NCBI GenBank assembly: GCA_004193555.1
Contig: RPGP01000001.1
Span: 192,114 to 256,113 of the forward strand
Direction of reading: 5' to 3'
DNA: 64,000 nt
Origin: Desulfobacteraceae bacterium Eth-SRB1
Lineage (GTDB): Bacteria; Desulfobacterota; Desulfobacteria; Desulfobacterales; ETH-SRB1
Below are positions 659 through 53,849 of the stretch, in pieces. Made by a program: the position numbers and the translations under genes. The stretch's first letter is position 1, and each line of letters opens with the position of its first letter. The notes beneath the pieces were generated by a model. It was not told the origin of the DNA. It saw only the letters and a list, made by a program, of their open reading frames with translations, and ran no database searches.

Positions 659-798
659 ATGCCTAAAGTGAGCTAAAGTGTCTAAAGTGAGCTAAAGTTA
701 AGGTATGCGCCTTTGGCGCTGCCAATTTTATATAAAAGATGGAGCAAGGCGACTCATTAACTTTAGGCACTTTAGCTCACTTTAGGCACTCATAACTT
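659..798. repeat. CTAAAGT-type palindromic intergenic element (A-type), copy 1
   Basis: The left arm is gcctaaagtgagctaaagtgtctaaagtgagctaaagttaagg. The core contains the gcgcctttggcgc mini-hairpin and ggagcaaggcgac. The right arm is ttaactttaggcactttagctcactttaggcac. The element is near-identical to 8884-9047. Confidence 0.85.
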
Positions 799-3784: not shown

Positions 3785-3966
3785 AAAAGATGAACGTCCA
3801 ACATCGAACAATGAACGTCCAACATCGAATAATGAAACAAAACACCCAATGAGAAACAAATGTTCAGGGATATTTGGTTGCTGTTTTTCTGACCTCCGAC
3901 CTCTGTTTCTTTGTTTTTCCCATTCGATGTTCAATGTTGGACGTTCGATGTTCGATGTTCATTGTT
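3785..3966. repeat. GAACATC-heptamer palindromic intergenic element (B-type), copy 1
   Basis: The left arm is aaaagatgaacgtccaacatcgaacaatgaacgtccaacatcgaataatg. The right arm is cattcgatgttcaatgttggacgttcgatgttcgatgttcatt. The loop includes a short CCGACCT-type run. Confidence 0.85.
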
Positions 3967-6617: not shown

Positions 6618-6790
6618 TATAAGTACCTGTATTTACAAAATTAGTTCTGGACCAACCTTCTATATTTTTGGGGAAAATCGCAACCAATCGGGTTGTCGGT
6701 TCTCGGTTCACAGTTACTCAATTTCGCAGTGTTTTTTTCAACCGTGAACTGATAACTGTAAACCGTAAACGGTTACTTTTGTTTTAGCCA

Positions 6791-7666
6791 CTACTGCTTA
6801 AACACCTCAGCACAAAATTCCCCCAGGGTGCATAGATCTTCGCACATATAAACCCCGCCTTCCTTCAATGCAGCAATTTTTTCCTGTGCCGTGCCTCTGC
6901 CGCCGCTCACAATTGCGCCGGCATGCCCCATCCGCCGTCCCGGGGGCGCTGTTAAACCTGCAATAAATCCAACAACCTTTTTTTTCATATTGTTATAAAT
7001 AAACTCGGCCGCCGCCTCTTCAGCGCTGCCACCAATCTCTCCAACCATAACAATCCCTTTGGTATCCGGATCCCTTTCAAAGGCATCCAGGCAATCTATA
7101 AAGCTTGTTCCAATTACCGGATCGCCTCCAATCCCTATACAGGTAGTCTGTCCTATTCCCTGCAGGGTTAGCTGATTTACAACTTCATATGTCAGGGTGC
7201 CGGAACGGGACACAACACCTATGGGGCCACCGGGTTTGTGTATAAACCCCGGCATAATGCCGACCTTGCACTGTCCCGGTGTAATGATGCCGGGACAATT
7301 TGGGCCGACAAGACGCGACCGGGCATTCCCCAGATAACTTCTGACTTTCATCATATCCAGAACCGGAATGCCTTCAGTAATTGCAACTATAATTTCAATG
7401 CCGTTATCTGCCGCTTCCACAATTGCATCTGTTGCATATTGCGGAGGAGCGAAAACCATACTGCAGTTTGCGCCGGTCTTATCAACAGCCTCGCCAACTG
7501 TATTAAACACAGGGATATCATCAATTCTTACCCTTCCCTTGCCAGGGGTTACCCCTGCAACAATATTTGTGCCGTACGCGATACATTGGTGAGTATGAAA
7601 CCGCCCCTCTTTCCCGGTTATGCCCTGAACTAACAGGCGTGTATTTTTATCAACAAATATGCTCAC
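6791..7666 (-). CDS. sucD: succinyl-CoA synthetase alpha subunit
   Basis: The ORF has [17 protein letters not shown] and MGHAGAI motifs. It overlaps sucC by 4 nt. Confidence 0.9.
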
Positions 7667-8859
7667 ACTTTATGCCTTTCCCCGCCCAGCATAGCTCCTG
7701 CCCCTGCAAACTCTGAAATTTTTTGCGCAGCATCCTTAAGATTCTCAGTATAAATCGGCTTAAAGCTGGATTCAAAAAGAATTCTGCGGCCTTCTTCAAT
7801 GTTGGTTCCATCCATGCGAACTATTACAGGTATATTTACATCTATCTTTTCAGCAGCCTGAACAACCCCTTTTGCCAGCACGTCGCAACGAAGTATCCCG
7901 CCAAAAATATTTATGAAAACCAGCTTCACATCCTTATCGCTGAGAATAATCCCGAAACCTTTTTCAACCATTTCAATGGTAGTGCCGCCGCCCACATCAA
8001 GAAAGTTGGCCGGCGCTGCGCCGGCAAGCTTTATTATATCCATGGTTGCCATTGCCAGGCCGGCTCCGTTTACCATATTGCCGACATTTCCATTCATTTT
8101 AATATAGTTGAGATTAAATCGTGAAGCTTCGACCTCAAGAGGATCCTCCTCCTCAATATCCCGATATTCAAGGATATTCCTGTGGCGGAACATGGAATTG
8201 TCATCAATGTCTATCTTTGCATCCAGAGCAACAATAGATTCTTTGGATGTAACCACAAGCGGATTTATCTCCGCCAGGGAGCAGTCGTAATCAACAAAAA
8301 GCCTGTACAGGCTCTGAAGCATTCCAACAAACTGCTTCCAGACAGAAGATGTAAGTTTCAGGTCAAAAGCGATTTCCCGGCAGTGAAAGGGCTGAATCCC
8401 CAGATTAGGATCAATAAAAACCCTGATTATTTTATCAGGGTCTGCTGCAGCCGCATCTTCAATATCGATCCCGCCTGCCTCGCTTGCCATAATAAGGATT
8501 TTTGAAGTTTTCCTGTCAATGATAATGCCGAGATAGAGTTCTTTATCTATTTCCAGCTTCTCTTCCACAAGTACCTTCCTGACAAGCTTTCCTTCCCGCC
8601 CTGTCTGGCTGGTAACAATTTTCGTTCCGATGATGCGGTGTGTCAGGCTGTAAACCTCATCAGTCGATCCCGCAAGTTTGATGCCTCCGCCTTTCCCCCG
8701 CCCACCGGCATGGATCTGGGCTTTTATAACGACCGGAAATCTTCCGATTCTACGAGCTGTTGCCCTGGCTTCGTCAGGGTCAAAAGCGATTCCTCCATCC
8801 GGCACACTAATGTTGTATTTTTTAAATAATTCTTTTGCCTGATATTCGTGAAGCCTCAT
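7663..8859 (-). CDS. sucC: succinyl-CoA synthetase beta subunit
   Basis: The ORF starts [12 protein letters not shown] and has an ATP-grasp and CoA-ligase domain pattern. Confidence 0.9.
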
Positions 8860-8883
8860 TATCTATATTTCCTAAAAATTTTA

Positions 8884-9047
8884 CCACGGAGCTAAAGTAA
8901 CAAAGAAAGTTATAAGTGAGCTAAAGTGCCTAAAGTGAGCTAAAGTTAAGGTATGCGCCTTTGGCGCTGCCAATTCTATATAAAAAATGGAGCAAAGCGA
9001 CTCATTAACTTTAGGCACTTTAGCTCACTTTAGGCACTCGTAACTTT
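8884..9047. repeat. CTAAAGT-type palindromic element (A-type), copy 2
   Basis: The element is near-identical to 659-798 and is the reverse complement of 13461-13640. Confidence 0.85.
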
Positions 9048-9055
9048 TTTACTGT

Positions 9056-11107: not shown

Positions 11108-11130
11108 CTTATATTTCTCCTTTTAAATAG

Positions 11131-11262
11131 TGCCTAAAGCGCCTAAAATATGTTAAAGTGCCTAAAGTTAAGGTATCGCTTCGCTCTGTTTTTTATATAA
11201 AATTAGCAAAATTCCATAACTTTAGGCACTTTAGCTCACTTTAGGCACTTGTAACTTTGCTT
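11131..11262. repeat. CTAAAGT-type palindromic element (A-type), copy 3
   Basis: The arms are gtgcctaaagcgcctaaaatatgttaaagtgcctaaagttaagg and taactttaggcactttagctcactttaggcac. The core is tcgcttcgctc. Confidence 0.8.
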
Positions 11263-11485: not shown

Positions 11486-11883
11486 AGTTACAAATGACTA
11501 AAGTGACTACTGTAAGTGCCTAAAGTGAGCTAAAGTATATTAAAGTGCCTAAAGTTGTGGTACGCCTTCGGCGTGTTAATTTTAAAGTTATAAGCGCCTA
11601 AGGTAATGTAGTGAACTACTGGCTATCTTTACTTCGATTTCTACAAAACTTTGACAGTCTCGTAAAAAGTCGAAAAATACCGTTTTTCGTCATTCCGGTA
11701 AAAACCGGAATCCAGTCTTTTCAAGTAGTTACAGAACATCTGGACTCCGGTTTTCACCGGAGTGACGACTTTTTACGAGTTCATCAACTTTAGCTCACTT
11801 GCAGTTTTCAAATAAGCAGCGCCGAAGGCGCATTCCTTAACTTTAGGCACTTTAATATACTTTAGGCACTTTAGCTCACTAAA
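11486..11883. repeat. composite A-type element: 4HB-gene deletion derivative with a nested TIR element
   Basis: The left arm and 5' region match 24696-24770. Bases 11607-11655 match the last ~50 nt of the 4HB gene at 25085-25134. The right arm matches 25176-25222. Confidence 0.8.
11659..11779. repeat. nested small element with 14-bp terminal inverted repeats CTCGTAAAAAGTCG / CGACTTTTTACGAG
   Basis: The 14-bp TIRs are perfect. Internal hairpins are attccggtaaaaaccggaat and ctccggttttcaccggag. Related ends occur at 22755-22880, 55026-55158 and 55925-55950. Confidence 0.7.
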
Positions 11884-13437: not shown

Positions 13438-13460
13438 TGTTATTTCCTTTCGTTAAGCAA

Positions 13461-13640
13461 GTTACGAGTGCCTAAAGTGAGCTAAAGTGCCTAAAGTTAA
13501 TGAGTCGCTTTGCTCCATCTTTTATATAGAATTGGCAGCGCCAAAGGCGCATACCTTAACTTTAGCTCACTTTAGGCACTTTAGCTCACTTGTAACTTTT
13601 TTTGTTACTTTAGCTTACTTTAAATCTCTGTGTTCTCCGT
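13461..13640. repeat. CTAAAGT-type palindromic element (A-type), copy in inverse orientation
   Basis: The element is the reverse complement of the 8884-9047 element, including the outer ccacgg...gttac flank. Confidence 0.85.
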
Positions 13641-13642
13641 GG

Positions 13643-14617
13643 TTAATAAAGTTCAAGCAGCCTACATGCCGCATTTATGGGCGCAATCAACCCTTTTTCA
13701 ACAGCCCTTTTCATTTCCGGCAACTCTCTTTTAACATCAGTGTTGTTATAAAACCGTTGTTTAAGCCCTTCTTCAAGCAGAGACCACATCCAGTCAACAG
13801 CCTGTCTCTTCCTCTTTGCCTCTAACTCTCCCGTAGCGGCGAGCTTTTCCATGTGAAGTAATATGGTCTTCCATATCTCATCTATGCCTCTCATTTCAAG
13901 TGCGCTGCAGGTTAAAACAGGAGGCGTCCATGTCGGAGATGAAGGTATCAAAAAATGCAGGGCAGATTCAACCTCTTTTCTCGCTTTTTCAGCCTTTTCA
14001 ATATTGTCGCCGTCAGCCTTGTTTATGGCAACAGCATCGGCCAGCTCTGAAATCCCCTTTTTCATTCCCTGGATTTCATCACCGGCTCCGGCCAGCATAA
14101 GAACCAAAAAAAAATCGACCATGGAGGCCACGGCGGTCTCAGACTGGCCTACCCCGACTGTCTCAACAATAATTACATCAAAACCGGAGGCTTCGCACAC
14201 AAGTATTGTTTCCCTGGTTTTTCCTGCAACCCCTCCCAGGGTGCCGCCCGAAGGAGAAGGCCGTATAAACGCCCTTTCCTCAACAGAAAGCTTTTCCATG
14301 CGGGTTTTGTCTGCCAGGATACTCCCCCCGCTCCTCTGGCTGCTTGGATCAACTGCAAGAACCGCCACACGATGCTCCCTGTTCACAAGCGTCATGCCAA
14401 GGTTCTCAATAAATGTACTCTTACCAGCGCCCGGAACCCCTGTAATGCCAAGCCGAACACCTTTTCCCGTGTATGAAAGCAGCTCATCAACAATTATCCG
14501 CGCCAGATCCTGATGGGCCGGAAGGGAGCTTTCAATCAGCGTAATGGTCTTTGCAAGCGCCAGCCTGTCATGCTCCAGCACACCCTGGATATAATATTGA
14601 TAATTATCCGCAATCAT
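13643..14617 (-). CDS. meaB: methylmalonyl-CoA mutase-associated GTPase MeaB (ArgK family)
   Basis: The P-loop GVPGAGKST and motifs ETVGVGQSE and NKAD are present. The gene is adjacent to the mutase. Confidence 0.85.
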   Translation of the reverse strand: MIADNYQYYIQGVLEHDRLALAKTITLIESSLPAHQDLARIIVDELLSYTGKGVRLGITGVPGAGKSTFIENLGMTLVNREHRVAVLAVDPSSQRSGGSILADKTRMEKLSVEERAFIRPSPSGGTLGGVAGKTRETILVCEASGFDVIIVETVGVGQSETAVASMVDFFLVLMLAGAGDEIQGMKKGISELADAVAINKADGDNIEKAEKARKEVESALHFLIPSSPTWTPPVLTCSALEMRGIDEIWKTILLHMEKLAATGELEAKRKRQAVDWMWSLLEEGLKQRFYNNTDVKRELPEMKRAVEKGLIAPINAACRLLELY

Positions 14618-14656
14618 TTTTTAGTATTTAGATTTAATCCTTACAAAGTTGTTTTG

Positions 14657-14795
14657 AAAGATGAACGTCCAACATCGAACATTGAACGTCGAACATCGAA
14701 TAATGATGTCGCTCCGCTCCGCCAGTTTATAAATTAGCAGAATACCTTATTCAACATTCGATGTTGGACGTTCGATGTTCGACGTTCATCTTTTT
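14657..14795. repeat. GAACATC-heptamer palindromic element (B-type), copy 2
   Basis: Arms built of gaacgtc/caacatc/gaacatt units flank the core aataatgatgtcgctccgctccgccagtttataaatt. The right end supplies the mutase stop codon. Confidence 0.85.
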
Positions 14796-16906
14796 TCTAA
14801 AGCCTTCAGTGTCTTATTCGCCGATTCGGTAATAACCGTGCCGGGCCCAAATATGCCTGCCACGCCTGCTTTATAGAGAAAATCATAATCCGCGGGCGGT
14901 ATTACTCCTCCAACAAACACAATAATATCCCCGCCGCCTTTCTTTCTTAACGCGTCTATAAGCTGCGGAACAAGAATCTTGTGCCCCGCGGCAAGACTCG
15001 ACACACCAACGGCATGCACATCGTTTTCAACAGCCATATTGGCGGCTTCCTCCGGAGTCTGAAACATGGGGCTGATATCTACATCAAATCCAAAGTCAGC
15101 ATACGCTGTGGCGACAACTTTAATACCACGATCATGACCGTCCTGCCCCATCTTTGTCATAAGTATCCTCGGCCTTCTCCCCTCCTTTTCCATAAAGGCC
15201 TCAGTCCTCTTCCTGAGGGAAGCGATTATCTCGCTGTCTCCATATTCAGCAGAATAAACACCGGATATACACCGGCTTACAGCCACATACCTTCCAAAAA
15301 CCTTTTCCATGGCATCTGTGATTTCTCCAACGGTTGCCCTTGCTCTAACTGCAGGGATGCATACTTCGAGAAGATTTCCTCCTGATTCAGCACATTTCGT
15401 AACGGCCTCAAGAACCTTTTTCACAGCAGCGGAACCACGTTTTGCCCTGATCTCTTTTAATCTTACAATCTGCTCATCACGGACAGAATCTGAAACCTCT
15501 AAAACATCAAGCCGGGCTTCTTCTTCTATACGGTATTTATTTACACCAACAATAACATCCCTGCCCTGGTCTATCCTTGCCTGCTTTATGGCTGCGGACT
15601 CTTCAATTCTCAGCTTCGGCATGCCGGATTCAATAGCCCTGGCCATGCCGCCAAGCTCTTCAACCTCTTTCATGATCTTTTTCGACTCCCTGATTATTCC
15701 ATTGGTCAGGGCTTCAATATAATATGAGCCTCCAAGAGGATCCACAACATGACATATCTGGGATTCGTCCTGAACTATTAACTGTGTATTCCTGGCGATC
15801 CTCGCTGACAATTCGGTTGGAAGCCCAACAGCTTCGTCAAAAGAGTTTGTATGAAGAGACTGGGTTCCTCCAAGGGTAGCGGACAGGCATTCAAGGGTGG
15901 TTCGTATTATATTATTATAAGGGTCCTGCTGGGCGAGACTCCAGCCGGATGTCTGGCAGTGGGTTCTTAACATGAGCGATTTGGGATTTTTAGGTTCAAA
16001 CCTGCTTATTATCTCAGACCACAAAAAACGGGCTGCCCTTAACATGGCTATTTCCATGAAAAAATTCATTCCTATCCCGAAGAAAAAGGAAAGGCGCGGA
16101 GCAAAAGTGTCGATATCAAGCCCTGCATCAAGCGCTGCTCTGACATATTCCAGCCCGTCGGCAAGAGTAAATGCTGTCTGAAGAACAGAATTTGCTCCTG
16201 CCTCCATCATATGATAACCGCTTATACTTACGGTGTTGTATTTAGGCATATTTTTTGAGCAAAAACCTATGATATCGGAGACTATCCTCATGGACGGTTT
16301 TGGAGGATAAATATAGGTATTTCTTGTAAGATATTCCTTTAATATATCGTTCTGTATCGTGCCCATGAGCTTATCCTGGGGCACACCCTGCTCCTCGGCC
16401 GCGACTATATATCCGGCAAGCACAGGCAAAACAGCGCCGTTCATGGTCATGGAAACAGACATCTTGTCCAGCGGTATTCTGTCAAAAAGGATCTTCATAT
16501 CCTCCACAGAGTCAATTGCCACTCCTGCCTTGCCGATATCGCCAACAACCCTTGGATGATCCGAATCATAACCCCTGTGAGTAGCCAGATCAAAGGCCAC
16601 TGAAAGTCCTTTCTGACCTGCGGCAAGGTTCTTTCTATAAAATTCGTTAGACTCCTTTGCCGTGGAAAAACCTGCATACTGACGAATAGTCCATGGACGG
16701 CCGGCATACATAGTGGCTTTCACCCCGCGAACATACGGAGCAAACCCGGGAAATGTATTCACGCATTCAAGCCCTTCCAGATCTTCGGCAGTATAAAGCG
16801 GCTTTACATTTATCCCTTCCGGAGTCATCCAGTTCAGTGAGTCAAGAGGTTTCCCCCTCAACTCCTTTTCCGCTAATTCAATCCATTTATTTTTATCAGG
16901 ATGCAT
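14786..16906 (-). CDS. methylmalonyl-CoA mutase, catalytic domain fused to B12-binding domain
   Basis: Mutase large-subunit motifs and a C-terminal GQDGHDRG cobalamin-binding motif are present. The start is moved to MHPDKNKW at 16906 because the upstream 18 codons are repeat-arm sequence. Confidence 0.9.
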
Positions 16907-16938
16907 AGCTATAATATATTTCCTTTTACAAGGTCGTT

Positions 16939-17080
16939 TAAAAAGATGAACGTCCAACATTGAACATCGAACATCGAACGTCGAATAATGATGTCGCTCC
17001 GCTCCGCCAGTTTATAAATTGGCAAAATACCTTATTCAACATTCGATGTTGGACGTTCGATGTTCGATGTTCATTTTTTT
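16939..17080. repeat. GAACATC-heptamer palindromic element (B-type), copy 3
   Basis: The element is about 90 percent identical by eye to 14657-14795, including the core. Confidence 0.85.
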
Positions 17081-17123
17081 CTGTCCCTCAATCCCTTAAC
17101 ACTTAGCACCTAACACCTAATCC

Positions 17124-17525
17124 CTATCTTTCACACAATTCAACCAGAACCCCGTTTGTCGATTTAGGGTGCAGAAAAGCTATTTTTGCGCCCCCCGCGC
17201 CCTTCCTCGGCTTTTCATCAACAAGCCTTATCCCTTTCTCCTTTAATTCCGCCAGCGCCTCTTCGATATTTTCCACAAGAAAGGCAACGTGATGTATCCC
17301 CTCCCCCCTCTTTTCCAGATATTTTCCGATAGGCCCATCAGGGTCGGTAGATTCAAGCAGCTCGATCTCACTTTCTCCAATCGGGAAAAAAGCTGTAATA
17401 AGCTTTTCATCCGCCATTACTTCACTGTCTTCAAGCCAGAGCCCTAAACGGTCTCCCCAGAATTTTTTTCCTTTATTGATGCTATTTACTGCAATCCCTA
17501 AATGATCAATTTTTATTACCTTCAT
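17124..17525 (-). CDS. mce: methylmalonyl-CoA epimerase (VOC/glyoxalase family)
   Basis: The ORF has IDHLGIAV and GIHHVAF motifs. The start is set at MKVIKIDH because upstream codons are repeat sequence. Confidence 0.8.
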   Translation of the reverse strand: MKVIKIDHLGIAVNSINKGKKFWGDRLGLWLEDSEVMADEKLITAFFPIGESEIELLESTDPDGPIGKYLEKRGEGIHHVAFLVENIEEALAELKEKGIRLVDEKPRKGAGGAKIAFLHPKSTNGVLVELCER

Positions 17526-17548: not shown

Positions 17549-17689
17549 AACTAAAGTGCCTAAAGTGAGCTAAAGTGCCTAAAATGCCTAAAGTTAAGGA
17601 GTCGCTCCGCTCCGGTTGTTTCCAAATTGAGGAGCGAAGCGACAACAACATTCATCATTCGATGTTGGACGTTCGATGTTCATCTTTTT
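17549..17689. repeat. chimeric element: CTAAAGT arm + GCTYCGCT core hairpin + GAACATC arm
   Basis: The left arm is A-type and the right arm is B-type. The central 13-bp stem is gtcgctccgctcc/ggagcgaagcgac. The element is the reverse complement of 23045-23178. Confidence 0.85.
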
Positions 17690-17719
17690 CAATCCCCTAA
17701 TCCTCTAATCCTCTAATCC

Positions 17720-17761
17720 AACACCTAACACTTAACACCTAACACTTAACACCTAACACTT
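17720..17761. repeat. 6 x heptamer array AACACCT/AACACTT
   Basis: Two heptamers alternate perfectly. The array is preceded by TAATCCTC octamers and abuts the aminotransferase stop codon. Confidence 0.85.
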
Positions 17762-19229: not shown

Positions 19230-19247
19230 ATTCCTCCTTATTTTTTT

Positions 19248-19333
19248 ACCACTGAGATCACAGAGAACACAGAGAATTTTCTTTTTGTTTTTTTATATAT
19301 TATCCCTCTGTGGTCTCTGTGGGCTCTGTGGTT
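19248..19333. repeat. CACAGAG 9-mer hairpin
   Basis: accactgagatcacagagaacacagagaa pairs with ccctctgtggtctctgtgggctctgtggt. The hairpin ends on the tgt stop codon. Confidence 0.8.
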
Positions 19334-20453
19334 AATCCTTCTTTTTAGCGGCTAAACTGTTATAAAATTTCTCTCTGAACACCTCAAACTTATCATCAAT
19401 TATTGCCTTTCGCATATTCTTCATCAAGCCGACATAATAGTTTATATTATGAATTGTATTTAAACGATAGGCAAGCAGTTCTTTTGACATATAAAGGTGG
19501 CGCAGATAAGCCTTGGAATAATTTCTGCACGTATAACATGTACACCCCTGCTCCACAGGCTCTTTATCATACTTGAACCGTGAATTAGATATGTTTATCG
19601 TGCCGCAGCTTGTAAACAACTGCCCGTTCCTGGCATTTCTGGTGGGCATAACACAATCAAACATGTCTGCGCCAAGGGCAACAAGCTCGACAATATCCTC
19701 AGGAGTTCCCACGCCCATGATGTATTTGGGCTTATTATCAGGCAGCTCAGGCAGCGTAAAATCCGCAATATCAAGCATTATATCTTTTGGTTCGCCCACG
19801 CTCAACCCGCCGATTGCATAGCCGCTGAAACCGATGTCAACGAGAGCTTCAACAGACATCTCCCTTAGATCCTTGAACATCCCACCCTGAACAATACCGA
19901 AAAGAGCGGATTTTGAACCATTATCCCATGCTGTTTTACATTTTTCAGCCCAGCTTGTGGTAAGTTTAAGGGCGTACATTGCTTCATCTCTGCTTGACGG
20001 ATATGCAATGCAATTATCGAGGCACATCATTATATCAGAACCGAGACAGTTTTGTATTTCAACCGCCTTTTCAGGTGTCAGCAAATGGCTCGATCCATCG
20101 ATATGAGATTGAAATGAAACCCCCTCGGGAGATATTTTCGCAAGCTTTGCAAGGGAAAATATCTGAAATCCGCCGCTATCCGTCAGAATTGGCCTGTTCC
20201 AGTTCATAAATCTGTGCAAGCCGGAAAAGAGGCTTATCACATCGCAACCCGGCCTTAAGTACAAATGGTATGTATTCCCCAAAATTATACTGGCTCCGGC
20301 GCCCGCAAGCTCTTCCGGAGACACCGATTTCACGCTTGCAAGAGTGCCCACAGGCATAAACACAGGTGTTTCAATCACACCGTGAGAAGTCTGCAACAGC
20401 CCCGCCCGGGCTCTTGTCTTTTTAGATTTTGCTGTTATCTTAAAATTGAACAT
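19332..20453 (-). CDS. tgt: tRNA-guanine transglycosylase
   Basis: The ORF has TPVFMPVGT and DSGGFQ motifs and the zinc site CxCxxC...H. The start is set at MFNFKI. Confidence 0.9.
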   Translation of the reverse strand: MFNFKITAKSKKTRARAGLLQTSHGVIETPVFMPVGTLASVKSVSPEELAGAGASIILGNTYHLYLRPGCDVISLFSGLHRFMNWNRPILTDSGGFQIFSLAKLAKISPEGVSFQSHIDGSSHLLTPEKAVEIQNCLGSDIMMCLDNCIAYPSSRDEAMYALKLTTSWAEKCKTAWDNGSKSALFGIVQGGMFKDLREMSVEALVDIGFSGYAIGGLSVGEPKDIMLDIADFTLPELPDNKPKYIMGVGTPEDIVELVALGADMFDCVMPTRNARNGQLFTSCGTINISNSRFKYDKEPVEQGCTCYTCRNYSKAYLRHLYMSKELLAYRLNTIHNINYYVGLMKNMRKAIIDDKFEVFREKFYNSLAAKKKD

Positions 20454-20557
20454 GTTTAAATAATTTGGTTCACGGTTCAAGGTTCACGGTTCTCCAACTT
20501 CTAAACCCTGAACCCACAGTTACATAAACTTGACCATTATCTGAATAACGAAGATAT

Positions 20558-20685
20558 TAAAAGATGAACGTCCAACATCGAACATCGAATAATGAAATCG
20601 CTTCGCTCCGCCGGTTTATAAATTGGCAGAATACCTTATTCAAAATTCGACGTTGGACGTTCGATGTTCGATGTTTATTTTTTTC
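20558..20685. repeat. GAACATC-heptamer palindromic element (B-type), copy 4
   Basis: The core is aataatgaaatcgcttcgctccgccggtttataaatt. The element is followed by the shared module cagcgctactgctggg...gctacgatcc, also present at 22441-22490. Confidence 0.85.
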
Positions 20686-20776
20686 AGCGCTACTGCTGGG
20701 AACAGAGCCCCCACGCTACGATCCCTAATCCTCAAATCCCTTAATCCCCTAACACCTGACACTTAACACCTAACAC

Positions 20777-21845: not shown

Positions 21846-22437
21846 AAAAGATGAACGTCCAACATCGAACATTGAACATCCAACATCGAATAATGCTATC
21901 GCTTCGCTCCTCAATTTATTTCTGTTTCTTTTCAGCCGTTCTGATACTCGTAACGAAAATCTTAATTAATTCCTCTGTTTCCTGTAAAATATCATCTAAT
22001 AGTTCAGGTTTTTTAATTAAAGGCACACGCTGAATAAGTTTTAACCATCGCTGGCTCTCCCTGAGTTCCTTTAATGAGATACGAAGCTTATGGATAAAGT
22101 CCTTTGGGGACTCCGCTGCCTGAGCTTCACCATGGTTTGGATAAGGTGAAGTTCCCGATCTTAACAATTGGCCAGCAACATGGTTGCCTGTTCTGGTATT
22201 TGGCATCTGTTCAACGATCTTTATTATTCGCACCGAATACTCGAGCAGCCTTTCTTCCAGATCATATGTTTGTTTCTTCATCTTTTCCCATTCAACGTTC
22301 GATGCTCATCCATTTGGATTGTTGATTGATGATTTTCTCGTTCCCACGCTCTTGCGTGTGAATTCATATTTGAAGGAGCGAAGCGACATCATCATTCAAA
22401 ATTCGATGTTGGACGTTCGATGTTCGATGTTCATTTT
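21846..22437. mobile_element. B-type hairpin element carrying a four-helix-bundle gene in its loop
   Basis: The left arm is 21846-21894 plus core tcgcttcgctcctc. The right arm is 22371-22437 (gaaggagcgaagcgac plus cgatgttggacgttcgatgttcgatgttcat). ORF 21916-22281 lies between them. Confidence 0.7.
21916..22281 (-). CDS. four helix bundle protein (23S rRNA intervening sequence protein family)
   Basis: The 121-aa ORF has motifs LLRSGTS, KDFIHKLRISLKELRE and W characteristic of the TIGR02436/PF05635 family. Confidence 0.85.
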   Translation of the reverse strand: MKKQTYDLEERLLEYSVRIIKIVEQMPNTRTGNHVAGQLLRSGTSPYPNHGEAQAAESPKDFIHKLRISLKELRESQRWLKLIQRVPLIKKPELLDDILQETEELIKIFVTSIRTAEKKQK

Positions 22438-22496
22438 TTTCAGCGCTACTGCTGGGGACAGAGCCCCCGTGCTACGATCCTTAATTCCCTAATCCC

Positions 22497-22682
22497 TCAA
22501 TCCCTTCCCAAATATATCAGCGCTAAGCCTGTAAGCATAAGCACAAAACCGAACCAGCGGAGAGAGCTGTCCGGTATTTCAAGAACCTTTTGCACCCAGA
22601 ATTTCATCTTTTCCGGAAATGCAAAATACGGCAGCCCCTCAACTATCATCACCATTCCAAGTACACACAAGAAAAATTCCAT
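22497..22682 (-). CDS. DUF2065-like small membrane protein
   Basis: The 61-aa ORF has two TM segments and an EGLPYFAFP motif. Confidence 0.6.
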   Translation of the reverse strand: MEFFLCVLGMVMIVEGLPYFAFPEKMKFWVQKVLEIPDSSLRWFGFVLMLTGLALIYLGRD

Positions 22683-22960
22683 TTAATTCCTCTTTTTTAT
22701 CACGAAAACACGAAAGTACGAAAACACGAAGAAAAGCATAAAAAAGTATGATGAACCCGTAAAAAGTCATTCCAGAACCGCATCAAGCCCCACCCCTTCC
22801 CTTTCCTCTTCGTGGCCTTCGTGTTCTTCGTGGTACAACACACTCTGTGGTAAAAAATCGACTTTATACGAAACCGTCAAAATTTTATTTTATAAACTTA
22901 TGCACCCTGTTTTGTCAAAACAAAATGGCTTGACTATGCGCCGCATTAAGATATAAATTG

Positions 22961-23040
22961 TTCAGGAGTTCAGGAGTTCAGGAGTTCAGGAGTTCAGGAG
23001 TTCAGGAGTTCAGGGGTTCAGGGGTTCAGGGGTTCAGGGG
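22961..23040. repeat. 10-unit octamer tandem array (6 x TTCAGGAG then 4 x TTCAGGGG)
   Basis: A direct count gives 80 nt with period 8. Confidence 0.9.
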
Positions 23041-23044
23041 ACTG

Positions 23045-23178
23045 AAAAAGATGAACATCGAACGTCCAACATCGAATGATGAATGTTGTTGTCGCTTCGC
23101 TCCTCAATTTGGAAACAAACTGAGCGAAGCGACTCATTAACTTTAGGCACTTTAGCTCACTTTAGGCACTTTTTAACT
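23045..23178. repeat. chimeric element: GAACATC arm + GCTTCGCT core hairpin + CTAAAGT arm
   Basis: The first ~78 nt are identical to the reverse complement of 17549-17689. The core stem is gtcgcttcgctc/gagcgaagcgac. Confidence 0.85.
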
Positions 23179-23264
23179 TTTTCTGTTTCGTGTTTTCGTA
23201 ATATTTTTTTATTTATACTTTTCTCTGTGATCTCTGTGATCTCCGTGGTTAACAAAATATAATT

Positions 23265-24695
23265 ATGGAATTTGAATCTGTTATAGGGCTTGAAATACAT
23301 GCCCAGCTAAAGACAAAAACAAAAATCTTCTGCGGCTGTTCAACAAAATTCGGAGCCCCTCCCAATACCCATACCTGTCCGGTATGTCTTGGCATGCCCG
23401 GGGTGCTCCCTGTGCTCAACAAAAAGGTTGTTGAATACAGTTTGCGCATGGCGCTTGCCACAAATTGCAAAATCAACAGGCAAAGCAGATTTGCCAGGAA
23501 AAACTACTTTTATCCTGACCTTCCAAAAGGGTACCAGATCTCCCAGTATGAACTGCCGATTGCGGAAAACGGGCATGTCGATATTGAAATCAACAGCCAT
23601 AAAAAAAGGATCGGAATCACAAGAATTCACATGGAAGAGGATGCAGGCAAACTGACTCACAATCCTGACAGGCCGCTTAGTATGGTCGATTTCAACAGGA
23701 CAGGGGTTCCTCTTATTGAGATAGTCAGCGAGCCGGATCTAAGATCCCCTGAAGAAGCCGGGGCATACTTAAGGCAGCTCAGGTCGATTGTTCGTTATCT
23801 CAGTATATGCGACGGCAACATGGAGGAGGGAAGCTTCAGGTGCGATGCAAACGTATCGATCAGGCCGATTGGCTCTGAAACTTTCGGCACGCGCGCAGAG
23901 CTTAAAAATTTAAATTCCTTTAAACATGTTGAAAAGGCGCTGCAATACGAAATAACAAGGCAAAAAGAAATTTTATCTGACGGCGGTGAGGTAATCCAGG
24001 AAACAAGGCTATGGAGCCCTGATAAAAACAGGACGACTTCAATGCGATCAAAGGAGGAGGCGCACGATTACAGGTATTTTCCAGACCCTGATCTTTTGCC
24101 TCTTGTAATTGACGATACATGGATTAATAATGTAAAAAAAAGCCTGCCCGAACTGCCGGATGAAAGAAAAATCCGTTTTATAAACAAATTTTTCCTTTCT
24201 TCAAACGACGCCGAAGCATTGACATCCAGCCGGGAGCTTGCAGAATATTTTGAGGAATGTGTAAAACAATTTCCGAATCCAAAACAGGTTTGCAACTGGG
24301 TCATGGGGGAGCTGCTCGGACTATTGAATGCAGAAGAAAAAACCATAAATGAATCCCCGGTTTCAACCGGCGATCTTGCCGGGCTGCTCAAATTAATCGA
24401 CAAAGGGGTCATAAGCGGCAAAATCGCAAAAACGGTATTTGAAGAAATGGCAAAAACAGGCCGTGCCCCTGAAAAGATTGTAAAGGAAAAACAGCTTGTA
24501 CAGGTCACGGACGTATCTGCCATTGAAGAGGTGGTATCAAAGATACTTTCAAACAACCCCAAAGAGGTGGAGGCTTACAAAAACGGCAAAACCAAACTTA
24601 TGGGTTTCTTCGTCGGCCAGGTTATGAAAGAAACAAGGGGCAAGGCCAATCCGAAGATCGTGAATGAAGTCCTGAAAAAGAGGCTGATAAATTAA
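23265..24695 (+). CDS. gatB: Asp-tRNA(Asn)/Glu-tRNA(Gln) amidotransferase subunit B
   Basis: The N-terminus is [15 protein letters not shown] and the [10 protein letters not shown] motif is present. The ORF is full length at 476 aa. Confidence 0.95.
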
Positions 24696-25222
24696 GTGCC
24701 TAAAATGCCTAAAGTATGTTAAAGTGCCTAAAGTTGTGGTACGCCTTCGGCGTGCTAATTTTAAAATTATAGGATGAAAGGTGGATAACAAAAAATTTGC
24801 TGCAGCGCTTGAAAAACGAACTCGTGAATTTGCGGTGCGGATTATTCACTTATCTTCGAAATTGCCGAATACACATGAAGGCAGAGTAATACGGAATCAG
24901 ATTACTAAATCCGGTACATCTATAGGCGCTAATTATCGTGAGGCAAATCATTCCAGAAGCAAAGCAGATTTTAAAAATAAAATCAAGATTTCTGAAAGTG
25001 AAGCAAGCGAAACTCAATATTGGATTGAAGTTGTTGTAGAGGCAAAAATGTTGCCATGGAAACAGGTAAAAGCAGAACACAAAGAATGTGGCGAACTATT
25101 GGCCATCTTTACTTCGATTTCTGCAAAACTTTAACTCATTTACAACTTATAACTTTAAAATAGACAGAATACATTAACTTTAGGCATTTTAGGCACTTTA
25201 ATATACTTTAGGCACTTTAGTT
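24696..25222. mobile_element. A-type hairpin element carrying a four-helix-bundle gene in its loop
   Basis: The element starts on the base after the gatB stop. The left arm is 24696-24745 and the right arm is 25176-25222; they are complementary over ~30 bp in best register. ORF 24781-25134 lies inside. Confidence 0.7.
24781..25134 (+). CDS. four helix bundle protein (23S rRNA intervening sequence protein family)
   Basis: The 117-aa ORF has a GTG start and motifs QITKSGTSIGANYREA, DFKNKIKISESEASET and YW. Confidence 0.85.
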   Translation: MDNKKFAAALEKRTREFAVRIIHLSSKLPNTHEGRVIRNQITKSGTSIGANYREANHSRSKADFKNKIKISESEASETQYWIEVVVEAKMLPWKQVKAEHKECGELLAIFTSISAKL

Positions 25223-30452: not shown

Positions 30453-32330
30453 CTAAACTACTCTCCCAAACAATTTCTCAATTTCTCCTTTGCTCCACCT
30501 TATCCATGTAGGCCGGCCATGCGGACAGTGGGAAGAATTTTTGCATTTATCAAGCTGGTCGAGAAGACCTTTCATCTCTTTATCGGAAAGCGGATGGTTT
30601 GCCCTGATTGCCCCGTGGCAGGCCATGAGTATCAGGCATTTATCAATGGCTTTTTCAATGCCGGGCCCGAAACCTGTTTCTGCAATTTTTTCCGTAATCT
30701 CGATAACGAGCGGCCTGATCTCCCTGCCGGCAAGAACCGCCGGCACAGACTTTACCACAAAGGTATCTGATCCAAAGGGCTCTATTTCAAGACCGGTCTC
30801 CTTTAAATCAGGGATCAGCTTTTCAAGTATGCCTGCCTCTTTATAGCCCAGGTCAACTGTTTCAGGAACAAGCAGTCTCTGGGATTCTGTTTTCCCTGCC
30901 ATGGATCTGTTTTTCAGATGCTCATAAACAATTCTCTCATGTGCTGCATGCTGATCAATAATCAGAAGCTCCTTGTCCGACTCGCAGAGTATATATGTGT
31001 CATGAAACTGGCCGATTACCCGCAAATCGCCAACACCTTTTTTATCCCAGATTTGCGCCTGTTCGGAGGCTGGAGGTCGGAGGTCAGAGGCCAGAGGTCG
31101 GATGCCAGAGGTCGGAGATCGGAGATCGGAGGTCAGGGGTCGGCGGTCGGCGGTCGGCGGTCGGAAGTCGGAGATCAGAGGTCGGAGGTCAGAGGTCAGG
31201 GGTCGGAGGCCAGAGGTCGGAGGTCGGAAGTCGGAAGTCGGATCGGAAAAGGGTGTTGGAAAGCCGCTGTAACGGGAAGCAGGCTCGGAAACGGAAAGCC
31301 TGTCCTGCACGGACAATGGACCGGCGCTCCATCCTGCCCTTTCAGCGATTTCCAGTCCCCTTTTTACAGCTTGTTTTACAGCATAATGAACCATGTTCTG
31401 CTGCGCAAACCTGACTTCCTGCTTTGCCGGATGAACATTTACATCCACGCTGTCAAATGGCAGGTCAATAAAAAGAACCGCCACGGGGAACCGCCCTTTC
31501 ATCAATCTTTGTTCATATCCTTCAAACAGGGCATGCGAAATAATCCTGTCCCGCACAAACCTTCCGTTTACATACACATAGATTCCCCGGGATGTAGTCC
31601 GGTCAACTCCGGGAGATGATATCCAGCCGGCCACAGAAATATTATCGTCATCAAATTTTATCCTGTGCAACCCCCTTTTTAAACCGCTGCCGAGGACATC
31701 CACGACCCTGTCAAAAGGATCTGTTGCAACAGGCCGGCCTTTGACAAGCCTTCCGTTGTGATTCAGCAAAAATTTCACATCAGGCCTGCCCAGACCGATG
31801 CTCGAAATAATATCTGCGATATGCCCGAACTCTGTATTGACGCTCTTTAAAAACTTTCGTCTTGCAGGCACATTAAAGAAAAGCTGCTTTACTGTAACCA
31901 TGCTGCCTGTGGGCGCGCCGATTTGAGAAACCTTTTTAATCTTTCCTCCATGGATTAGTATCTCGGCGCCTGCATCAGAGGCCTTATCCCTCGTAACAAG
32001 GGAAAATTTTGATACCGAAGCAATGCTCGGCAGCGCCTCGCCCCTGAAGCCGAGACTCTTTATGGAAAACAGATCGTCGTTTTTGTAAATCTTACTGGTC
32101 GCATACCTCTCCAGGGAAAGAAGCGCATCGTCTTTGTTCATGCCGCAGCCGTTGTCTGAAACACGAATTAATGACCTGCCGCCGTTTTCAATCTCGATTG
32201 CTATCCGGCTGCTGCCCGCATCCAGCGCATTTTCGACAAGCTCCTTTACAACAGAAGCCGGCCTCTCCACGACTTCGCCCGCAGCTATCCTGTTTGAAAG
32301 GTTTTCGGGAAGTATTCTTATTTTCGACAT
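30453..32330 (-). CDS. mutL: DNA mismatch repair endonuclease MutL
   Basis: The N-terminal GHKL ATPase (IAAGEVVERPASVVKELVENALDAG) and the C-terminal endonuclease motif DQHAAHERIVYE are present. The linker carries a 7-aa periodic insert. Confidence 0.9.
   Translation of the reverse strand: MSKIRILPENLSNRIAAGEVVERPASVVKELVENALDAGSSRIAIEIENGGRSLIRVSDNGCGMNKDDALLSLERYATSKIYKNDDLFSIKSLGFRGEALPSIASVSKFSLVTRDKASDAGAEILIHGGKIKKVSQIGAPTGSMVTVKQLFFNVPARRKFLKSVNTEFGHIADIISSIGLGRPDVKFLLNHNGRLVKGRPVATDPFDRVVDVLGSGLKRGLHRIKFDDDNISVAGWISSPGVDRTTSRGIYVYVNGRFVRDRIISHALFEGYEQRLMKGRFPVAVLFIDLPFDSVDVNVHPAKQEVRFAQQNMVHYAVKQAVKRGLEIAERAGWSAGPLSVQDRLSVSEPASRYSGFPTPFSDPTSDFRPPTSGLRPLTSDLRPLISDFRPPTADRRPLTSDLRSPTSGIRPLASDLRPPASEQAQIWDKKGVGDLRVIGQFHDTYILCESDKELLIIDQHAAHERIVYEHLKNRSMAGKTESQRLLVPETVDLGYKEAGILEKLIPDLKETGLEIEPFGSDTFVVKSVPAVLAGREIRPLVIEITEKIAETGFGPGIEKAIDKCLILMACHGAIRANHPLSDKEMKGLLDQLDKCKNSSHCPHGRPTWIRWSKGEIEKLFGRVV
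31064..31245. repeat. ~26 tandem heptamers (plus strand YRGAGGT; coding strand ACCTCYG) inside the mutL linker
   Basis: A direct count was made. The array is translated as eight SDLRPPT-like 7-aa units. The same unit type occurs intergenically at 3889-3905 and 18975-19000. Confidence 0.9.
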
Positions 32331-36410: not shown

Positions 36411-36547
36411 TAAAAGATGAACGTCGAACATCGAACGTTCAACATCGAATTTTGAATAAGGAATTCTACCAATTTATAAACTGGCGGAGCGAAGCGATTT
36501 CATCATTCGATGTTCAATGTTCGACGTTCGATATTCGATGTTCAAAA
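36411..36547. repeat. GAACATC-heptamer palindromic element (B-type) with core in inverse orientation
   Basis: The core aatttataaactggcggagcgaagcgatttc is the reverse complement of the B2/B3 core. Confidence 0.8.
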
Positions 36548-53670: not shown

Positions 53671-53697
53671 TTTTGAAAATAAATTGCTTGATTATTC

Positions 53698-53778
53698 AAC
53701 TGCCGCTCCCTACGCTGGTATAATCCAGGTCAGGTTCAAAGGGTATTTTCTCAGCCCTGTCAGGCACCCCCGCATATT
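53698..53778 (-). ncRNA. TPP (THI-box) riboswitch
   Basis: The minus-strand sequence is gggggtgcctgacagggctgagaaaataccctttgaacctgacctggattataccagcgtagggagcgg. It contains the conserved GGGGUGC, CUGAGA, ACCCUUUGAACCUGA and UACCAGCGUAGGGA elements. Confidence 0.9.
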
Positions 53779-53849
53779 TTTAATAATCTATCCGGCTTTA
53801 TCTATATAATCAAGCAATAATTTTACAACAGCTCTTTCTGTTTTCCGGG

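Follow-up and report, generated by a model that had tools for sequence, protein, structure and literature searches.

Two inverted A/B chimeras flanking a 5.4-kb segment are probably cargo-less, hetero-ended members of a modular hairpin-repeat family of Desulfobacterales

The window analyzed here (the whole stretch of 64,000 nucleotides) was placed in the Desulfobacterales by its GatB, whose best matches were uncultured and up to 94% identical, with Desulfonema magnum at 80%. The minus strand carries the genes for DUF2065, a PF05635 ORF, queA, tgt, nifU, an aminotransferase, methylmalonyl-CoA epimerase, mutase, MeaB and carboxyltransferase, and the plus strand carries gatB and an FG-GAP gene, read from a conserved promoter. 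Two short chimeric elements (copies 1 and 2), each combining halves of two repeat families, enclose a 5.4-kb segment predicted to hold the aminotransferase, a NifU-like gene, tgt, queA and a four-helix-bundle PF05635 cassette. The ORF scan found all of these between the copies, together with the DUF2065 gene and the gatB promoter. Copy 1 occupies the site between the aminotransferase stop codon and the ribosome-binding site of the epimerase; the position of the promoter (22930-22959) puts copy 2 inside the gatB leader. Tandem arrays adjoin both copies. Those next to copy 1 (17691-17761) are absent from the independently assembled metagenome contig L124, where the aminotransferase stop codon abuts the B arm. 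The last four units of the array upstream of copy 2 make up a canonical G-quadruplex motif at 23013-23040 on the plus strand (GGGGTTCA three times, then GGGG), and a weaker C-rich motif lies at 22487-22509.

Several other features of the neighborhood were recorded. Relatives differ in which genes of the methylmalonyl-CoA pathway they have, and repeat elements stand at the junctions (window 6642-9054 and 13454-17125; see Table 1 for the relatives): neither L121 nor L124 has the succinyl-CoA synthetase of the window (6791-8859), L124 also lacks mutase and MeaB, and of the epimerase L121 retains only a 150-nt remnant, adjoining a minimal A element. The nifU-tgt gap (19241-19338) holds an array hairpin of CACAGAGAA / CTCTGTGGT units with an AT-rich loop, which is kept in L121 (6760-6850); a similar hairpin follows gatB in L162 (1905-1990), and arrays of the same units also stand just 5' of gatB (23222-23247). 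Within mutL (30453-32330, minus strand), a TCGGAGG heptamer array of 25.7 units at 31063-31242 is in frame and codes for (P/L)TSDLRP-like repeats of the MutL linker; the alignment with L121 mutL is interrupted there, and the unit resembles the intergenic TTCCGAC/TTCTGAC arrays. A TPP riboswitch (RF00059, 70 bits) at 53690-53781 on the minus strand is unrelated to the chimeras.

The elements of the window belong to a modular family in which arrays of 7-to-9-nt tandem repeats form long hairpins, some of them enclosing a PF05635 ORF. The half-element comprises an arm of tandem repeats and a short linker, to which many copies add a GC-rich core box of 13 nt; the usual long hairpin, either A-A or B-B, is made of two halves of one type in inverted orientation. 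On the A side, the window contains four short A-A hairpins and two larger cassettes, one with a PF05635 ORF; on the B side there are five B-B elements (four core-box hairpins and one shell) and one PF05635 cassette. Heterotypic pairs number only two, namely the chimeras, and other hairpins are built of CACAGAG, CACGAAA and GATTGAT arrays. The core box occurs 12 times in the 64-kb window against 0.12 expected, and therefore not by chance. Only one core box, beside one arm, is present in each short A-A or B-B element; the B cassette 21853-22432 has one at either end, and the chimeras are the only short elements in the window with two.

The PF05635 ORF of this B cassette (21916-22281, minus strand) matched 7,679 protein clusters (90% identity) at an E value of ≤1e-20, and the best 120 of these 7,679 clusters were 85 to 94% identical to the ORF of the window, mostly on short contigs, a cross-species similarity far above that of the housekeeping GatB (about 80%). 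In other organisms (L154 and L159), the canonical PF05635 cassette consists of B arm, ORF and B arm, without core boxes. A direct repeat, AAGAAACAGA, is found at both the start (MKKQ) and the end (KKQK*) of the PF05635 ORF, and in L079 (about 1100-1260) and in the window shell 3790-3966 the ORF was apparently deleted between these repeats. Deletion of this kind is a plausible route from ORF-bearing cassettes to empty elements, judging from the repeats, and the two ORF-deleted B-B shells indicate that cargo can be lost. Small GC-rich hairpins (such as CCTGCCGCGAC...GCGAGCACGGCGGG and GCCGTCGTAGCC...GGCTACTATGGC) are nested in arms or core boxes of A- and B-type elements as a further insertion layer.

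The two chimeras had been described as reverse complements of each other (17549-17689 and 23045-23178), and a repeat search agreed, finding inverted arms of 141 nt (17579-17719 and 23015-23155) with 90% complementarity. The identity of about 78 nt also given for them is real but slightly shorter, the longest exact inverted match being 76 nt (17616-17691 with 23043-23118); a second exact inverted block of 31 nt lies in the A arm (17553-17583 with 23142-23172). What separates the copies is one arm unit of 9 nt and four base substitutions, the latter all in or beside the A-side core box. Each has one CTAAAGT-type (A) arm and one GAACATC-type (B) arm, which are unable to pair, as the original prediction held: the A arm is a CTAAAGTGC-type array, the B arm a GAACATC-type array, and between them two 13-nt core boxes pair across a 17-nt loop. 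On the transcribed (minus) strand, the A arm of copy 1 reads as ACTTTAGGC units and its B arm as GAACATC units. Neither chimera has cargo; the end of a B-type cassette (arm and core box) directly abuts the end of an A-type cassette (core box and arm). Each core box is accompanied by its own family-specific linker, which indicates that two core-bearing half-elements were joined head to head rather than by a crossover inside one core. Both copies show the same order on their transcribed strands (B arm, core, loop, core, A arm, then the gene), a polarity toward the downstream gene that amounts to two independent cases only, with a chance of 50%. The copies are probably mutually inverted because the genes downstream, epimerase and gatB, are divergently transcribed. 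Copy 1 ends 22 to 24 nt ahead of the epimerase ATG (17525), and the A arm of copy 2 ends 93 nt ahead of the gatB ATG (23265).

Table 1. Positions of the chimeras, of related repeat elements and of flanking features (window coordinates unless a related sequence is named)
Feature	Position	Strand	Description
Chimera copy 1	17549-17691	-	B arm, linker, core box, 17-nt loop, core box, TCCTTAA linker, A arm
Copy 1 A arm	17551-17594	read on +	Followed by linker TTAAGGA
Copy 1 A-side core box	17601-17613	read on +	GTCGCTCCGCTCC
Copy 1 B-side core box	17631-17643	read on +	GGAGCGAAGCGAC, after the 17-nt loop
Copy 1 linker and GAYGTTC arm	to 17684	read on +	Followed by a T-run to 17689
Copy 1 double-core hairpin	17601-17643		GTCGCTCCGCTCC, loop GGTTGTTTCCAAATTGA, GGAGCGAAGCGAC; 13-bp stem
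Chimera copy 2	23043-23178	+	B arm, core, loop, core, A arm; in the gatB 5' leader
Copy 2 parts	B arm 23045-23069, core 23091-23103, loop, core 23121-23133, A arm 23140-23172		Mirror image of copy 1
Copy 2 double-core hairpin	23091-23133		GTCGCTTCGCTCC, loop TCAATTTGGAAACAAAC, TGAGCGAAGCGAC
Mosaic switch point in copy 2	23119-23127		Left as copy 1 (76 nt), right as A-A elements (44 nt)
A-A hairpin	8892-9033		Core-side half as copy 2 A half over 44 nt
A-A hairpin	13467-13613		Core-side half as copy 2 A half over 44 nt
A-A element	663-790		Core-side half as copy 2 A half over 42 nt
A-A element	11129-11250		
ORF-less A cassette	11495-11874		
A-type cassette	24694-25220	+	A arm, PF05635 ORF 24781-25134, A arm
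B-B hairpin, single core box	16938-17082		
Further B-B hairpins	14663-14787, 20557-20688, 36419-36543		
B-B shell	3790-3966		ORF remnants only
B-type cassette	21853-22432	-	B arm and core, PF05635 ORF 21916-22281 (-), core and B arm
Tandem 8-mer and 7-mer arrays	17691-17761	-	AATCCTCT x3.6 and AACACCT x5.7; from aminotransferase stop to copy 1
(GTTCAGGA/GTTCAGGG) x10 array	22960-23040	+	Immediately upstream of copy 2
Sigma-70-like gatB promoter	22930-22959	+	TTGACT ... TATAAAT; conserved in L119, L120, L121, L161
gatB slot	Window 22960-23178; L119 640-880; L120 3460-4050; L121 9860-9900; L161 30-185; L162 1-360		
Pathway-gene junctions in relatives	L121 4815-5060; L124 600-640		
Nested GC-rich hairpins	L120 2245-2300; L121 8090-8125, 5085-5125; L138 6330-6500		

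Folding with ViennaRNA agreed with the expectation that only the central core hairpin would be self-complementary. The chimeras fold into the 13-bp core hairpin alone (dG of about -35 to -37 kcal/mol, z of -1.9 to -2.8), for which the predicted 12-N19-12 layout is exact in copy 2, and the homotypic A-A and B-B elements pair end to end (dG of -44 to -58, z of -5.8 to -7.1). At the gathering threshold, the sole Rfam match in the window was the TPP riboswitch located elsewhere; with the cutoff relaxed to an E value of ≤1, the chimeras were still unmatched and the sole extra matches were spurious miRNA-precursor models on hairpin elements. Chimeras and homotypic hairpins did not differ in their distance to start codons, both standing roughly 20 to 90 nt upstream. 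Long-range RNA pairing between the two copies was rejected, as transcription from opposite strands gives the same RNA sequence in both and not complementary ones.

To evaluate the occurrence of these elements elsewhere, genome contigs were scanned with an 18-nt signature of the A half, which gave at least 118 stretches, mostly from several dozen Desulfobacterales MAGs. Among the matches listed, about 117 A-type ends were usable; the partner is an A arm for the great majority and something else for about 20, and for none of the roughly 117 ends in these other genomes is it a core box with a B arm. Likewise, the double-core hairpin was not found in 756 kb of related genomes among the matches listed. 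A scan of 241 million metagenome records for this hairpin returned 30 matches, mostly unrelated repeats; one of the 30, L124, contains the chimera itself. In L138, another of these matches and from another lineage, a double-core element joins a B half to a different arm type, and in L110 a half made of core and A arm directly adjoins a B element without its own left arm. The chimeras are in this sense not unique to the locus, given one ortholog (L124), one analogue (L138) and one A/B juxtaposition (L110), and heterologous joints exist beyond it but are rare. Viral contigs gave no match to the chimera-specific pattern and two chance matches, without arms, to that of the A half. Neither PF05635 cassettes with repeat arms nor such repeats in Desulfonema and relatives turned up in the literature, and we found no published description of the Desulfobacterales A/B repeat family.

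The individual halves are recognizable in ordinary elements. The B-type cassette 21853-22432 is the source type of the B half of the chimeras, its end agreeing with that half as far as the inner flank TCAATTT, and the relative L121 has, in a different slot, a solo B half whose linker is of the same subtype. Ordinary A-A elements carry on their core side a match to the A half (GGAAAC..CC, then the core box, TCCTTAA and the A arm). The inner flank GGAAACC also accompanies solo A halves in L110, and the 3' end of the A-type PF05635 cassette in MAG DS_bin_10 shows the same succession of core box, TCCTTAA and A arm.

Contig L124 reproduces the window junction, with the 3' end of the aminotransferase, the chimera and the epimerase, and this independent assembly bears on whether the chimeras might be assembly artifacts, that is, contigs misjoined through shared repeat cores. 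The repeats of the family do break many metagenome assemblies, many PF05635 contigs are shorter than 2 kb, and L124 itself starts 44 nt before the chimera. However, the same chimera was assembled between the same genes in both cases, the gene order agrees with that of relatives, and a misjoined inversion between A-A and B-B elements would give two direct A+...B- junctions instead of a mirror-image pair, all of which makes an artifact hardly credible. We had also considered that the beginning of L124 might be a gatB promoter, and the contig an inverted isoform, and rejected this since the sequence is the 3' end of the aminotransferase.

The chimera of L124 differs from copy 1 by only 2 mismatches in 135 nt (98.5% identity), compared with 88.3% for the epimerase coding sequence and 86.8% for the carboxyltransferase. 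Copy 1 is old enough that a related species has it too. Near-perfect conservation between species would also fit a selected function. The chimeras might then be cis-acting leader elements, the core hairpin with its single-stranded arrays acting upstream of epimerase and gatB at the RNA or DNA level, for instance as a protein-binding platform or an mRNA-stabilizing hairpin. Besides the excess conservation (98.5% against 88% for the adjacent coding sequence), the placement of both copies in leaders, 22 to 93 nt from start codons and in the same sense, would agree with this, as would the compensated change in the A-side core of copy 2 (GGAG..CTCC to TGAG..CTCA). However, homotypic elements are just as overconserved: the B-B element of the tgt-queA slot is 95.5% identical between the window and L120, against about 80% for queA and tgt, and the PF05635 ORF of cassette 21853-22432 shares 95.9% of its nucleotides with its L120 ortholog, against 85.8% for gatB. 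The conservation is thus a property of the family, pointing to family-wide concerted evolution or constraint, and is no evidence for a function specific to the chimeras. Moreover, close relatives hold quite different inserts in the same slots, no Rfam model matched even at an E value of ≤1, and the K position of the linker showed no covariation, by eye, with the last core base in other genomes. We therefore regard a selected role as unlikely.

The history of copy 2 can be read in more detail. Its B half and loop equal copy 1 over 76 nt, and its A half equals the resident A-A elements 8892-9033 and 13467-13613 over 44 nt, and the change from one to the other takes place within some 8 nt at the A-side core box. 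Copy 1 has, in its A half, a different linker and an extra unit, both in common with L124. The prediction of recombination between element families at the core box holds insofar as copy 2 is a mosaic that switches there, but not as a crossover inside one shared core. The mosaic supports non-reciprocal recombination or gene conversion at or near the core as its likely source, and the intervening block keeps the ancestral orientation, which a reciprocal crossover would have inverted, so that the event behind copy 2 would have been non-reciprocal. Alternatively, copy 2 could have been assembled independently from very conserved modules instead of by conversion from copy 1. An origin of the chimeras in one reciprocal inversion, with an A-A and a B-B element as partners, was rejected, as it predicts two direct A+...B- junctions and not a mirror pair.

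The slot in the gatB leader where copy 2 resides is hypervariable: its right boundary (AACTTTTTCTGTTTCG) is fixed, and the six related genomes show four kinds of filling. Copy 2 was absent from this slot in all five relatives compared (L119, L120, L121, L161 and L162), which, as far as these sequences go, shows it to be specific to the lineage of the window. In its place are a ParE-like toxin-antitoxin pair (L120 and L162, with a remnant in L119), TTCTGAC arrays (L161) or a 26-nt palindrome (L121). On the other side of the gene, 3' of gatB, L161 carries a PDDEXK_3 (PF13366) ORF between direct CACGAAAA arrays (1720-2200), at the place taken in the window by the A-type PF05635 cassette. Arrangements like these suggest that several kinds of small ORF may use slots flanked by repeat arrays.

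That copy 2 is an insertion relative to five relatives, that one genome has two near-identical copies, and that their identity has sharp limits, at TGAAAAAGATGAAC and where the A arm ends, could also mean that the chimera is a mobile, hetero-armed MITE-like unit that transposed from the epimerase slot to the gatB slot. Against this, copy 2 is no simple duplicate, its A half agreeing with that of the resident A-A elements instead of that of copy 1. The unlike arms provide no terminal inverted repeats, no target-site duplication is recognizable, and the double-core pattern yielded only one further copy, the ortholog, in 241 million metagenome records and none in 756 kb of related genomes among the matches listed. 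Transposition of the chimera as a unit appears improbable to us, to the same degree as a selected cis-acting role. The 5.4-kb block was likewise considered as a composite mobile element with A-type ends and rejected, since L121 has the same genes in the same place without the ends.

It had further been proposed that the two inverted copies mediate inversion of the segment between them. The copies would act as recombination sites flipping the 5.4-kb block, thereby swapping epimerase-mutase and gatB between the gatB promoter and the promoter of the DUF2065-queA operon. The 76 bp of perfect inverted identity are enough for RecA, and the equal polarity of both copies would leave intact operons in either orientation. 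However, we found no support for inversion. The orientation is that of the window at the gatB side in L119, L120, L121 and L162 and at the epimerase side in L121 and L124, including relatives without chimeras, so that a single orientation was seen in all assembled sequences (the window and these five relatives) at the readable junctions. Apart from the PF05635 ORF, the segment has only housekeeping genes, and the ORF scan found no invertase, integrase or site-specific recombinase in it or its flanks (epimerase and GatB). Furthermore, the A half of copy 2 has not been homogenized with that of copy 1, as frequent exchange would do, and the event that formed copy 2 left the ancestral orientation intact. 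An invertible segment is in our opinion very improbable. Since inversion would be viable, merely exchanging the downstream partners of two promoters, and 76 bp are identical, rare RecA-mediated flipping is conceivable, with nothing here in its support.

Taken together, the reading we favor, and hold to be somewhat better than an even bet, is that the chimeras are cargo-less, hetero-ended members of a modular hairpin-repeat family that fills intergenic regions of this genome, that copy 2 arose by non-reciprocal recombination, and that both are most likely neutral. The core box or its immediate vicinity would be where a B half and loop of the copy 1 type became attached to an A half like those of the resident A-A elements, probably through gene conversion or other non-reciprocal recombination; the leader slot concerned turns over rapidly among relatives. 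The chimeras would then most likely be neutral products of the turnover of repeats. At the molecular level, they would probably contribute no more than a short, stable mRNA hairpin, in which the two core boxes are predicted to pair while the arms stay single stranded; the 13-bp stem is presumably too short for RNase III, unlike the 40-to-50-bp homotypic stems.

By themselves the chimeras are minor, but they reveal how a repeat family that abounds in the sulfate reducers of seeps and sediments is built from modules, and the mosaic of copy 2 provides sequence evidence that its elements exchange parts non-reciprocally at the core box. These elements either evolve far more slowly than the surrounding genes or are homogenized, and they mark places where the gene content of close relatives differs, with a bearing on the spread of 23S-IVS-type four-helix-bundle cassettes, the poor assembly of MAGs and the processing of operon mRNAs. 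More speculatively, arms and core boxes might be the recombination handles of an undescribed cassette-exchange system of Desulfobacterales, a possibility that we consider doubtful. If it did hold, PF05635 ORFs and perhaps PD-(D/E)XK_3 would be selfish ORFs that, along with empty shells, are copied between slots by homology-driven conversion, and A/B chimeras would be the footprints of exchange between two arm families. A still less likely extension is that the inverted pair permits an occasional swap of operons and promoters by inversion of the 5.4 kb.

The 23S rRNA intervening sequences (IVS) with a PF05635 / S23p four-helix-bundle ORF, known from Coxiella, Leptospira and Salmonella, resemble the full-length relatives of the chimeras, in which complementary termini form a stem with the PF05635 ORF in the loop. 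A stem enclosing this ORF is present in cassettes 21853-22432 and 24694-25220 but not in the chimeras. An IVS is inserted in helix 25 or 45 of 23S rRNA, whereas both chimeras lie between protein-coding genes, no rRNA is found in the window, and the stems of the family are built of tandem 7-to-9-nt repeats. RNase III cuts the 28-bp stem of the Coxiella IVS (PMC4990558) and also acts on the Correia hairpin (PMC10969869), and the long homotypic stems may by analogy resemble these substrates. Correia/nemis and the pneumococcal BOX, RUP and SPRITE elements are MITEs that, like the elements described here, are small, non-coding, intergenic and often located just 5' of genes; they are cotranscribed, and the pneumococcal ones cluster and insert into one another (PMC10969869). 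Terminal inverted repeats are a feature of the homotypic relatives but not of the chimeras, whose arms are of different families; no direct repeat indicating a target-site duplication was evident between the window and L119, L120, L121, L161, L162 or L124, in which all slots are filled, and none of 20 window ORFs scanned is a transposase. Hin- and Fim-type switches have a recombinase gene in or next to the segment and occur in both orientations, unlike the present case.

Arrays on the 7-nt scale that stand in leaders near start codons are shared with the Beggiatoaceae, whose TAACTGA repeats form direct arrays in intergenic leaders just upstream of start codons (PMC4679880). Here, by contrast, the arrays are usually inverted pairs around a core or ORF and form hairpins, and their unit sequences are unrelated to those of the Beggiatoaceae or to the cyanobacterial STRR. 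The latter are likewise short tandem heptamer arrays of filamentous bacteria. REP/BIME sequences are abundant extragenic palindromes arranged in subtype mosaics of alternating orientation (PMC2817692, PMC3116915). The REP/BIME/REPIN elements of gammaproteobacteria are similar to the present family in being more conserved than neutral sequence and in occurring inside operons, and their mosaic of subtypes has a counterpart in the A/B chimeras, L138 and the juxtaposition in L110. They differ in that the core box GTCGCTYCGCTCC and its flanks lack a GTAG or CGTC tag, that the arms are tandem arrays and not a single 20-to-40-nt palindrome, and that the host belongs to another phylum; no RAYT gene was seen among the selected ORFs scanned of the 64-kb window. 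The repeat and cassette family as a whole is large and apparently undescribed, and the chimeras, being devoid of terminal inverted repeats, GTAG tag, rRNA site, ORF and recombinase, are best regarded as a variant of mosaic extragenic repeats rather than as members of any single known family.
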